From NCBI GenBank assembly GCA_963840855.1, contig CAWJBB010000055.1, forward strand, positions 1-64,000: a stretch of DNA of 64,000 bases, written 5' to 3'. Under the pieces are notes generated by a model that saw nothing but the letters and a program-made list of their open reading frames with translations, was not told the origin of the DNA and ran no database searches. Source of the DNA: an uncultured delta proteobacterium (GTDB taxonomy: Bacteria > Desulfobacterota > Binatia > UBA9968). Shown here piece by piece: positions 739 through 2,087 of this stretch (the stretch's first letter is position 1; the number at the start of each line of letters is the position of its first letter). The position numbers and the translations under genes are program-made.

Positions 739-1617
739 ATGGCGAACGCGGCCAAAGATAGAAAAGGCAAGAGCAAAACCGCTGCGCAAGCGACGGCGCA
801 AGCCGGGCCGAACTGGCCGATACTCGCCCTCGCCGTAATCGGCATGGGCTTGAGCGGTTATTTGACCTATTCCGCCTGGGCGCTCAAGCAACTAGCCGGC
901 TGCACGGAGGGAAGCGCGTGCGACATCGTTCTGAGTAGCCAATGGTCCTCGCTATTCGGCATGCCGACCGCATTCTGGGGCTTTCTCACTTACGCTCTTC
1001 TCGCCGCCATCGCCTGGAACAAGCGCACCGAAGCGCAATGGAAGACCGCGTGGCTAGTATCCCTCTTCGGCGTACTTTATAGTCTTTACTTGACCGGTAT
1101 TTCATTCTATTCGCTGGACGCGGCCTGCCCCTACTGTTTGACATCGTTGGGACTGATGAGCGCGATTTTCGCCGTCACCTTGTGGCAGCGGCCAAAACGA
1201 ATGGTTGGTTTTACTTGGGGGCCGTGGCTGGCCAAGAGCGTCGTTCCGGCGCTAGCCGTGATCGTGGCGCTGCATTTGCACTACGCCGGCTACTGGGGCA
1301 AGACCGCCGCCGCGGAAGATCCCTGGATCCGCGGTCTGGCGGTCCATCTAACCAAGATCGACGCCAAGTTTTACGGCGCCTTTTGGTGCCCACACTGCAA
1401 GCAGCAAAAAGAAATGTTCGGCAGCTCGGTTGACCGAGTACCCTACATCGAATGCAGTCCCGGGGGACAGAGGGCTCCGGTGGCACAAGTTTGCAAGGAC
1501 GCGCGTATCGACACTTACCCCACCTGGGTGATCACCGGGCAGCGCTACAGCGGCACCCAAACTCTGGAGGCTCTGGCGCAGCTTAGCAACTATAAACTGG
1601 ACGGCGCCAAGCGATGA
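739..1617 (+). CDS. Vitamin K epoxide reductase (VKOR) family protein fused to a thioredoxin-like domain
   Basis: Loop Cys pair CTEGSAC, membrane CPYC, C-terminal WCPHC and YPTW; ATG at 739 directly after the SCO stop. Confidence 0.9.
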   Translation: MANAAKDRKGKSKTAAQATAQAGPNWPILALAVIGMGLSGYLTYSAWALKQLAGCTEGSACDIVLSSQWSSLFGMPTAFWGFLTYALLAAIAWNKRTEAQWKTAWLVSLFGVLYSLYLTGISFYSLDAACPYCLTSLGLMSAIFAVTLWQRPKRMVGFTWGPWLAKSVVPALAVIVALHLHYAGYWGKTAAAEDPWIRGLAVHLTKIDAKFYGAFWCPHCKQQKEMFGSSVDRVPYIECSPGGQRAPVAQVCKDARIDTYPTWVITGQRYSGTQTLEALAQLSNYKLDGAKR

Positions 1618-2087
1618 GAAATATGGTAATGCCGCTCAAGGTAACGATGGCCGTAGCATCCGCGCTCTTCGCCATTTTGACGCCGTGGCCAATCCAAGCC
1701 GATCCGGCAAAATATCCGCAGTTCGCCCAACAGAAACCGGCTGAGAACATCAAGCTGCAATTCATCTCGGTCGACGACCTGGTTGCGGACATAAAAAAGG
1801 GCGCAAAGCCGCTGATCATCGACGTGCGCTCAGCGGAAGAATTCAACGAGTCGCATATCTTGGGTGCCCGGTCAGCGCCGTTGGCGCAATTTCGCGATCA
1901 CATCAAAACTATTCCGCGCGATCGCGTCACGATTCTATATTGAGCTTGCCCACATCACCTGGCCAGTTTGGCCTATGGCATCCTCTACGAAGAAGGCTAC
2001 CGCAACATGAAAATTCTCGACGAAGGAATCGTCGGCTGGCAAGATAAGCGCTATCCGATGGAGGGGACGAGAATCCCCAAACCCTAG
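1614..2087 (+). CDS. Exported rhodanese-domain protein, probable selenoprotein (TGA 1941-1943 = Sec; 157 aa)
   Basis: Signal peptide; [29 protein letters not shown] then the frame continues ...[24 protein letters not shown]... to TAG 2085-2087, completing the rhodanese fold 2 nt before queC. Confidence 0.88.
1944..1980 (+). promoter_or_regulatory. Putative bacterial SECIS hairpin
   Basis: GGCCA-GTT-TGGCC (1961-1973) starts 17 nt after the TGA, with G first in the loop; outer TGCC(1947-50)/GGCA(1977-80) pairing. Confidence 0.6.

Follow-up and report, generated by a model that had tools for sequence, protein, structure and literature searches.

Rhodanese selenoproteins and the gene at 1614..2087

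Rhodanese-domain selenoproteins have been described in several forms. With U standing for selenocysteine (Sec), the excerpted text of a 2026 catalogue numbers five of them, 1 (UxxS), 2 (UxxG), 3 (CxU, family NF041203), 4 (UxxG) and 5 (UxxxxU, TsoB) (PMC13188914), and a UxU variant is described for Olavius symbionts (PMC1976440). As far as the excerpts of these two papers go, all of them rest on prediction by comparative genomics, and for none has a function been established (PMC13188914, PMC1976440). Here we analyse a 64,000-nucleotide stretch of DNA from an uncultured delta proteobacterium (Desulfobacterota; Binatia; UBA9968; contig CAWJBB010000055.1, positions 1 to 64,000), called the window throughout, in which positions 1614-2087 very probably form one gene for a Sec-decoded selenoprotein. 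Like the catalogued rhodanese selenoproteins, its product would consist of a rhodanese domain with Sec in or near the active-site loop, and the preliminary description of this DNA was right that Sec-containing rhodaneses are known. The order of its redox residues, UxC, is absent from the rhodanese forms in the excerpted catalogue table (PMC13188914). A literature search whose scope did not extend to supplementary tables, which could list the family, returned no UxC rhodanese and no link between a rhodanese and VKOR; the mentions of UxC in PMC2398784 and PMC1088965 concern other families. The protein therefore seems to be an uncatalogued UxC form of rhodanese selenoprotein, set apart from forms 1, 2 and 4 by their descriptions only.

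The gene lies on the plus strand, from ATG 1614 through an in-frame TGA at 1941-1943 to TAG 2085-2087, with the frame open for 47 codons past the TGA (1944-2084) and a gap of 2 nt between the TAG and the ATG of queC at 2090. With the TAG included, 1614..2087 is the complete selenoprotein gene, an assignment that draws on Pfam, comparative data and an AlphaFold2 model; the read-through product has 157 residues, with Sec at residue 110 and the active-site motif LYUACPHH. The Sec codon (UGA, 1941..1943) falls in the column of the Cys of the YC motif in solved rhodaneses, both by alignment and across the orthologous loci described below, and the Cys112 codon (TGC, 1947..1949) supplies the second residue of the UxC pair, in the column where alignments place the Sec of NF041203. 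The Pfam Rhodanese model (PF00581) matches residues 54-144 and thus spans the TGA, at 58.2 bits against a cut-off of 22.2. The preliminary description had reported a call ending at TGA 1941, the 47 open codons, a stop 2 nt before queC and a hairpin GGCCA-GTT-TGGCC beginning 17 nt past the TGA, and all of these coordinates hold. Its two further claims at this site also stand: the expected C-terminal end of a rhodanese is encoded after the TGA, as the translation and the Pfam match across it confirm, and the TGA occupies the position of the rhodanese catalytic Cys, since in HMMER alignments residue 110 pairs with the YC-motif Cys of 6mxv, 3nhv and 3tp9. We take the latter to be the catalytic residue of those chains.

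The nearest curated family is NF041203 (rhodanese_LYCAU), which is the best NCBIfam match at 56.2 bits against a cut-off of 115, so that the protein is not a member; in the six-frame search of its own genome the same model scores 49.4 bits. For comparison, 201 genomes of the phylum were considered, of which 31 have a match to NF041203 above its cut-off, and 12 true members were fetched. These score 161-184 bits, and each carries an in-frame TGA and the motif LYC[A/S/T/K]U-P. The two groups have much in common: a hydrophobic N-terminus ahead of a small rhodanese domain, a pair of redox residues spaced two apart at the same strand end and followed by Pro, one of them a TGA-encoded Sec, and a GU-containing hairpin about 17-20 nt downstream of the TGA. 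They differ in that the position of Sec is swapped when the 12 members are aligned, LYC-x-U there and LYU-x-C here, and in the residues that follow, P-x-E-A-T-S-A there and P-H-H-L-A-S-L-A here. Long, well-supported branches separate them in the tree (100/100 and 100/99), and on this sequence comparison we regard the UxC and LYCAU families as related but distinct.

Other described rhodaneses are more remote. TsoB (NF045694) is a fusion of rhodanese and DsbD with a UxxxxU motif, and its model gives 23 bits against a cut-off of 805, whereas the protein described here is a single 157-residue domain with one Sec. Models of the PspE and GlpE thiosulfate sulfurtransferases (NF007627, TIGR02981 and NF001195) score 29.9, 26.9 and 18.7 bits, against cut-offs of 102, 126.3 and 102. 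PspE of Escherichia coli is likewise an exported single-domain rhodanese, but it has a single Cys, with no Sec and no second Cys at +2, and to our knowledge it has not been linked to VKOR or SCO1. The best match among solved structures is BH2092 of Bacillus halodurans (3nhv, 3o3w; Foldseek E 6e-9, phmmer 2e-8), in which the start of the loop, YC-x-x-P, aligns with YU-A-C-P; BH2092 has Cys in place of Sec, a longer loop (YCWGPAC) and about 28-34% identity, and the title of its entry gives no function.

The UGA codon, its hairpin and the selenocysteine machinery

We propose that UGA 1941-1943 would be decoded as selenocysteine during translation: a selenocysteine insertion sequence (SECIS) hairpin 17-32 nt downstream, inside the coding sequence, would recruit SelB carrying Sec-tRNA(Sec), and the ribosome would carry on for 47 codons to TAG 2085. 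The resulting protein would present Sec110 at the YC Cys column and Cys112 two residues on, within the loop U-A-C-P-H-H.

Conservation of the TGA extends well beyond this genome. The window's own genome and those of 60 relatives, 61 in all, were searched in six frames, which gave 38 matches at E <= 5.1e-30. One in-frame TGA is present in 37 of these, which come from 36 of the 61 genomes and from three families; the single match without a stop is that of genome G010. When the read-through products are aligned, the TGA occupies the same column in 30/30 fetched orthologous loci from three families, a count that covers the fetched loci and leaves out the other 7 TGA-bearing matches, and that becomes 29/29 without L031, whose genome is flagged unpublished. 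The conserved context in these loci reads LYU[A/Q]CP[H/R]HLA: 29 of 29 sequences have Cys at codon +2 (Cys112), position 115 is always His, and position 114 holds either His or Arg in the Sec clade. Over codons +13 to +43 the mean pairwise difference is 0.265, 0.109 and 0.476 at codon positions 1, 2 and 3, and amino-acid identity goes up from 0.58 before the TGA to 0.74 after it, both in a set of 27 sequences that omits L038 (truncated), L031 and L041 (one-codon gap). This pattern of substitution by codon position, together with the higher identity after the TGA, indicates that the downstream frame is coding sequence under purifying selection.

Homologues that do not carry TGA point to the same column. 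Among nine full-length database homologues, seven have Cys at the Sec position, one has Trp and one has Gly. The seven Cys forms read YC[A/G/D]C, and five of them go on with PHH, PHE or PHA. The Trp belongs to P0006, a 154-residue protein from a 1034-base contig in a public protein collection, and is most likely an annotation artefact, the gene caller having translated TGA as Trp, rather than a variant with Trp. A Gly in the Sec column, accompanied by Arg at the Cys112 column (FYGNRPRH), is seen in P0134 and in the G010 match (G010:C39:15224-15637), which have no stop and neither redox residue.

A scan of a species-level genome collection with the Cys homologue P0143 brought up nine close loci (L085-L093) in metagenome-assembled genomes of Rokubacteria/Methylomirabilota. 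The TGA is in the same column in eight of these nine, and the ninth, L085, has TGC; together with two more distant forms, L094 and L095, it makes up the loci with TGC or TGT at the Sec column. The preliminary description had proposed an alignment of homologues in the expectation of either Cys or a conserved TGA at this column, and both were found, TGA in 30/30 orthologous and 8/9 Rokubacteria loci and Cys in 7/9 database homologues. A maximum-likelihood tree with 52 rows unites all 36 Sec forms in a single clade (support 100/99), to which L085, three long-branch Cys forms and P0134 also belong, the last placed among the Sec forms. Rooted only at its midpoint, this sequence tree is compatible with a single origin of Sec at the column followed by later reversions. 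The Rokubacteria proteins (L085-L093) are also extended at the C-terminus by a conserved stretch, GPFVPHGDETYRAVGV, which is absent from the window's lineage.

The hairpin downstream of the TGA has the geometry of a bacterial SECIS element, as the preliminary description had suggested. Its arms GGCCA (1961-1965) and TGGCC (1969-1973) enclose the loop GTT (1966-1968), so that the apical hairpin GGCCA-GUU-UGGCC occupies 1961..1973 on the plus strand, an assignment based on pairing and codon conservation, and its loop begins 22 nt after the UGA. Folding extends it to a predicted SECIS element at 1942..1985 (plus strand) with lower stems 1942-1944/1983-1985 and 1947-1950/1977-1980. The bacterial model, as given in the excerpted source, calls for an apical loop of 3-9 nt on an upper stem of 4-16 bp, a G within the first two loop positions with, in most cases, G or U after it, a distance of 16-37 nt from UGA to loop, and a folding energy of -7.5 kcal/mol or lower (PMC13188914). 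The element described here agrees with all four of these published constraints, through the 3-nt GUU loop, the 5-bp stem, the 22-nt spacing and the -13.5 kcal/mol of the 45-nt element; the apical hairpin can also be drawn with an AGUUU loop on 4 bp, and the bare 21-nt hairpin folds at -7.4 kcal/mol.

Constraint on this segment is visible at the level of nucleotides. In 29 sequences (L038 left out), codons +5 to +12, which lie across the hairpin and include four- and six-fold degenerate Leu, Ala and Ser codons, have a codon entropy of 0-0.8 bits, compared with 1.3-2.4 bits for comparable codons elsewhere in the gene. Pairing is retained in 98.6% of the cells of the apical hairpin in 29 sequences and in 87.7% of those of the lower helix, and the changes seen in the hairpin are one double change from G-C to C-G (L017) and five G-U wobbles. 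Among the Rokubacteria loci, all eight that bear TGA keep the same hairpin at the same distance from it (CTGGCCAGT[T/C]TGGCC); in the TGC orthologue L085 it is degraded to CTGTCCAGCCTGGCC, and the hairpin is lacking from L094 and L095, the two distant Cys forms. The hairpin therefore tracks the TGA and not the peptide. Across contigs from soil metagenomes and RNA libraries, summed depth is about ten times higher in the bin 1944-1977, where short contigs match only about 1938-1982; the loose upstream ends of these contigs differ from the window and from one another, and they look like orthologues of relatives. The UGA-SECIS core seems to be common, almost letter for letter, to many soil bacteria, and the rise in depth fits strong nucleotide-level constraint on it.

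The genome also encodes machinery for selenocysteine. It contains selA (530 bits), the wing domain of selB (77 bits) and selD (383 bits), arranged as a selD-selB-selA cluster on another contig (C1:37592-41868, minus strand), and selD itself carries an in-frame TGA (GUAAK) with a hairpin whose loop is GUU, as in the rhodanese SECIS. In-frame TGAs at established selenoprotein positions, as in selD, are also carried by two further rhodanese domains, of the LYCAU type (C52:11576-11896 and C6:55670-55951, both plus strand), and by a homologue of FdhA (C40:300397-303685, plus strand), which has one in its N-terminal third. The two LYCAU-type domains, with motifs VLYCSUPNEATSA (C52) and FAFCAUPDEATSA (C6), lie inside longer open frames and have a GC-rich hairpin about 17-20 nt past each TGA; a C52-type rhodanese with one TGA recurs in several relatives. 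The C40 formate dehydrogenase alpha-subunit homologue was found as three adjacent matches, and its frame may be interrupted.

The TGA is not reassigned in this organism, since it serves as an ordinary stop in 20 of the window's 43 long open reading frames (ORFs), including the SCO1 and VKOR genes upstream of the rhodanese. Nor is the codon a peculiarity of one assembly. Contigs from two DNA runs of different studies bridge it (X1 record 2, 1557-1982, and X5 record 20, 1599-1981; X1 may be the source sample), and neither differs from the window at 1941-1943. In these two assemblies of contigs, as distinct from raw reads, the site is TGA and not the TGC or TGT that the preliminary description had said would undermine the selenoprotein.

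Several observations count against selenocysteine decoding here. The gene for tRNA-Sec was not found in the genome's own assembly: the best Rfam match is a tRNA-Ser at 43 bits against a cut-off of 47, ARAGORN lists 39 tRNAs with neither tRNA-Sec nor tRNA-Asn among them, BLAST with the selC genes of relatives returned nothing, and a relaxed ARAGORN pass on contig C65, beside the best flank match, gave no selC; nor did synteny help, since what flanks the same-genus selC corresponds to a small gene that is repeated. The SECIS lower stems are broken in more distant orthologues, and the control for hairpin loss is a single close Cys orthologue (L085). Covariation in the hairpin is not significant, the observed count being matched by 244 of 500 shuffles (29 sequences), because the hairpin hardly varies. 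Its folding energy is ordinary, with z -1.08 for the 45-nt element, matched by 34 of 200 shuffles, and z -1.82 for the bare 21-nt hairpin, which 12 of 200 shuffles equal. No curated Rfam family fits 1850-2100 at E <= 10, where the matches are chance ones to a lncRNA and a snoRNA. Finally, contigs from two soil RNA libraries that touch the TGA cover only about 1938-1982 and seemingly come from relatives; one 307-base RNA-library contig spans 2014-2320, and contigs cannot show transcription.

Could the TGA instead be a true stop, in a pseudogene, a split gene or a sequencing error with a 109-residue product or none, or could the code be a variant one? Public gene callers do give products of 87-113 residues for most close relatives, selC is missing from the assembly, and P0006 with its W would suit a Trp code. 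Three families and a second phylum nevertheless keep the TGA in one column, ahead of a frame under purifying selection, and truncation would, judging from the model, deprive the product of its catalytic residue and of the final strand and helices of the fold. For a variant code one would look for Trp, yet seven of the nine full-length homologues have Cys, and TGA ends many long ORFs; a sequencing error is opposed by the agreement of the two assemblies from different studies. The missing selC weighs little, because this draft of 93 contigs, at 94% completeness, has no tRNA-Asn either, which makes tRNA absences in it uninformative, and because tRNA-Sec is present in 5/5 tested relatives that bear the rhodanese gene, one of them of the same genus (75-77 bits). 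Of the four genes that the preliminary description had wanted sought, selA, selB and selD are thus in this genome, whereas selC is seen in the relatives and not in the draft itself. Variant code, pseudogene, split gene and sequencing error were accordingly rejected on the comparative data, the use of TGA as a stop and the two agreeing assemblies, and we consider it highly improbable that the gene is anything other than a selenoprotein gene.

Fold, export and gene neighbourhood

An AlphaFold2 model built from a 36-row alignment has a compact alpha/beta rhodanese fold with a mean predicted local distance difference test score of 90.7; an N-terminal helix (residues 8-21) and the linker after it are of lower confidence. 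In this model strand 106-109 leads into residue 110 and a helix begins at 115. Foldseek against the PDB retrieves only rhodanese domains, with BH2092 (3nhv) at the top. Enzymes of the Cdc25/Acr2 type share the rhodanese fold and have a C-x5-R active-site loop. A phosphatase or arsenate reductase of that type was rejected here, as the residue six after Sec110 is Leu116 and the loop U-A-C-P-H-H-L contains no C-x5-R.

Residues 1-29 (1614..1700, plus strand) form a predicted Sec-type signal peptide by their sequence features, which are a basic beginning, then a hydrophobic core, and IQA ahead of Asp30-Pro. All 30 orthologues have a hydrophobic N-terminus and a small-x-small motif followed by [D/N/E]-[P/T/A]-x-x-Y-P-x-[F/Y]-A. 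As these features are kept in every orthologue, we accept that the rhodanese selenoprotein is exported through its predicted signal peptide, which would place its action outside the cytoplasm.

Upstream, on the same strand, the gene adjoins two others. The first of the module is a SCO1/SenC-family gene (84..737; Pfam SCO1-SenC, 1.3e-30) with the CxxxC motif CQDTC, which ends in TGA and overlaps the next gene. This second gene (718..1617; Pfam VKOR, 3.1e-24) encodes a fusion of a membrane VKOR domain with a thioredoxin-like domain carrying WCPHC, and its product matches the solved VKORC1/thioredoxin proteins 4nv2 and 3kp9 over its full length (E about 3e-46); WCP[H/A]C is invariant in the thioredoxin-like domain of 23/23 sequences. 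Its stop TGA 1615-1617 overlaps the rhodanese start codon as ATGA, an arrangement from which the rhodanese gene is predicted to be translationally coupled to it. The order SCO1 - VKOR/thioredoxin - rhodanese is kept across three families: upstream of the rhodanese in the 30 loci, SCO1 is found in 24, the VKOR domain in 24 and the thioredoxin part in 27 (2 of them weak), and three of the six loci without upstream SCO1 are cut at their end. Genome G058 has a Cox11 gene upstream, and G035 has a second SCO1.

The module is lineage-specific, in that no VKOR, SCO1 or queC gene occurs within 3 kb in any of the 12 Cys and Rokubacteria loci. All nine Rokubacteria loci (L085-L093) have a gene for a Fur-family regulator directly 3' of the rhodanese on the same strand, and NicO/DUF1007 metal-transport genes lie near the rhodanese in L086. 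Downstream of the rhodanese in the window is queC (2090..2824, plus strand; Pfam QueC, 7.9e-72), which follows in 18 of the 30 loci, closer relatives only, and is probably not part of the module. Within this 244-residue ORF, Pfam QueC covers residues 5-218 and relatives align over 213-219 residues, while the last ~25 residues (2750-2824) overlap a minus-strand ORF of 307 residues at 2771-3694; queC may in truth end sooner, or the frame may contain an error.

Possible role and significance

What such a protein might do is suggested by its residue pair and by its neighbours. The VKOR-thioredoxin protein is a DsbB/DsbA-type quinone-linked oxidoreductase, and SCO1 is a copper chaperone of cytochrome oxidase assembly. 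In the excerpts of one study, VKOR is treated as functionally equivalent to DsbB, and PspE, a periplasmic rhodanese, can together with DsbC partly take the place of DsbA/DsbB (PMC5403849). Because the Cys at +2 is strictly conserved, Sec and Cys are swapped in the sister family, VKOR is equivalent to DsbB and PspE can drive disulfide formation, we infer a redox role: the Sec110/Cys112 pair would cycle between selenol/thiol and selenenylsulfide forms, and the protein would be a thiol/selenol redox protein of the envelope that works with the VKOR-thioredoxin protein and SCO1. We put this partnership forward tentatively, as a proposal from sequence and gene order that may well prove wrong. It has against it that three of the 30 loci (L032, L035 and L036) have neither SCO1 nor VKOR within 1.5 kb, and that the Rokubacteria genes have neither within 3 kb and stand ahead of a Fur-family regulator instead.

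Two other functions would be open to the same selenoprotein. As a classical sulfurtransferase, it would use Sec110 to carry sulfane sulfur, as a selenopersulfide, from periplasmic thiosulfate or polysulfide, much as the Cys of PspE- or Sud-type enzymes does; Cys112 would then be accessory, and the neighbourhood incidental or protective, for example through the clearing of sulfide or cyanide poisonous to cytochrome oxidase. We hold this to be possible, though on the unlikely side. A rhodanese fold with Sec at the YC Cys column speaks for it, as do its export, a property of PspE in the excerpted description (PMC2593051), and the occurrence of the gene without VKOR or SCO1 in 3/30 loci and throughout the Rokubacteria loci. 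The closest families with a named function, PspE, GlpE and the MoeB/MoeZ rhodanese domains, point the same way, but all score below their cut-offs, PspE and GlpE (29.9 and 18.7 bits against 102 each) far below. The loop U-A-C-P-H-H, moreover, has none of the basic or Gly-rich residues of solved chains (YCgsgfrs, YCrtggrs), and the Cys conserved at +2 in 29/29 sequences, with the swapped Sec of the sister family, argues for a redox pair and not for a lone persulfide carrier.

Copper handling is the other candidate, and we judge it quite unlikely. Here Sec110, Cys112 and His114/His115 would bind periplasmic Cu(I) and exchange it with SCO1 and Cox11, the protein filling the place that a PCuAC-type chaperone has in other sco operons. 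The gene is conserved after SCO1 in 24/30 loci, with the Cox11 and additional SCO1 genes noted above; a Fur-family regulator, of metal or peroxide response, follows it in 9/9 Rokubacteria loci, with NicO/DUF1007 genes near in L086; and His115 is invariant, beside a His or Arg at 114 in the Sec clade. That Arg, however, replaces His114 in the more distant orthologues, and the metal context is unlike between the two lineages. We also know of no rhodanese domain that acts as a copper chaperone. In the excerpted catalogue, UxC or CU motifs with Sec do occur in metal proteins, the SO_0444 Cu/Zn efflux transporter and MbdU (PMC13188914).

Beyond the redox partnership lies a wider proposal, which we think unlikely to hold in full: that the protein is a sixth rhodanese selenoprotein form and the selenium catalyst of an undescribed envelope pathway, a selenenylsulfide-forming rhodanese recycled by the quinone-linked VKOR-thioredoxin protein, with the copper-site cysteines of SCO1, and through them cytochrome oxidase assembly, as its target, and with a metal- or peroxide-regulated counterpart in Rokubacteria.

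For annotation the consequences are more immediate. In a collection of 5.8 billion proteins, 119 of the 120 best matches are proteins of 87-113 residues that end at the Sec codon, P0006 being the exception, which bears out the earlier suspicion of a UxC rhodanese that pipelines truncate; those from NCBI are named 'rhodanese-like domain-containing protein' or 'hypothetical protein'. The gene family is thus systematically mis-annotated, its truncations being without the catalytic residue, and current pipelines cannot rescue the gene, as no NCBIfam model reaches its cut-off. Metagenome runs from soil and sediment contain near-identical sequence, and a second phylum has orthologues of the gene.

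The finding introduces no new principle, as the same logic regularly yields new bacterial selenoprotein families. It would add to the rhodanese selenoproteins a form with Sec at the canonical catalytic position, UxC, the mirror image of LYCAU, and its tight link to the VKOR-thioredoxin protein and SCO1 offers a testable connection of selenium with envelope thiol or copper biology. The UxC and LYCAU families are a natural pair in which to ask what Sec contributes at each position of a C-x-C motif; if the proposed redox role is true, the two families together would show Sec put by evolution at one or the other residue of a single C-x-C redox pair.

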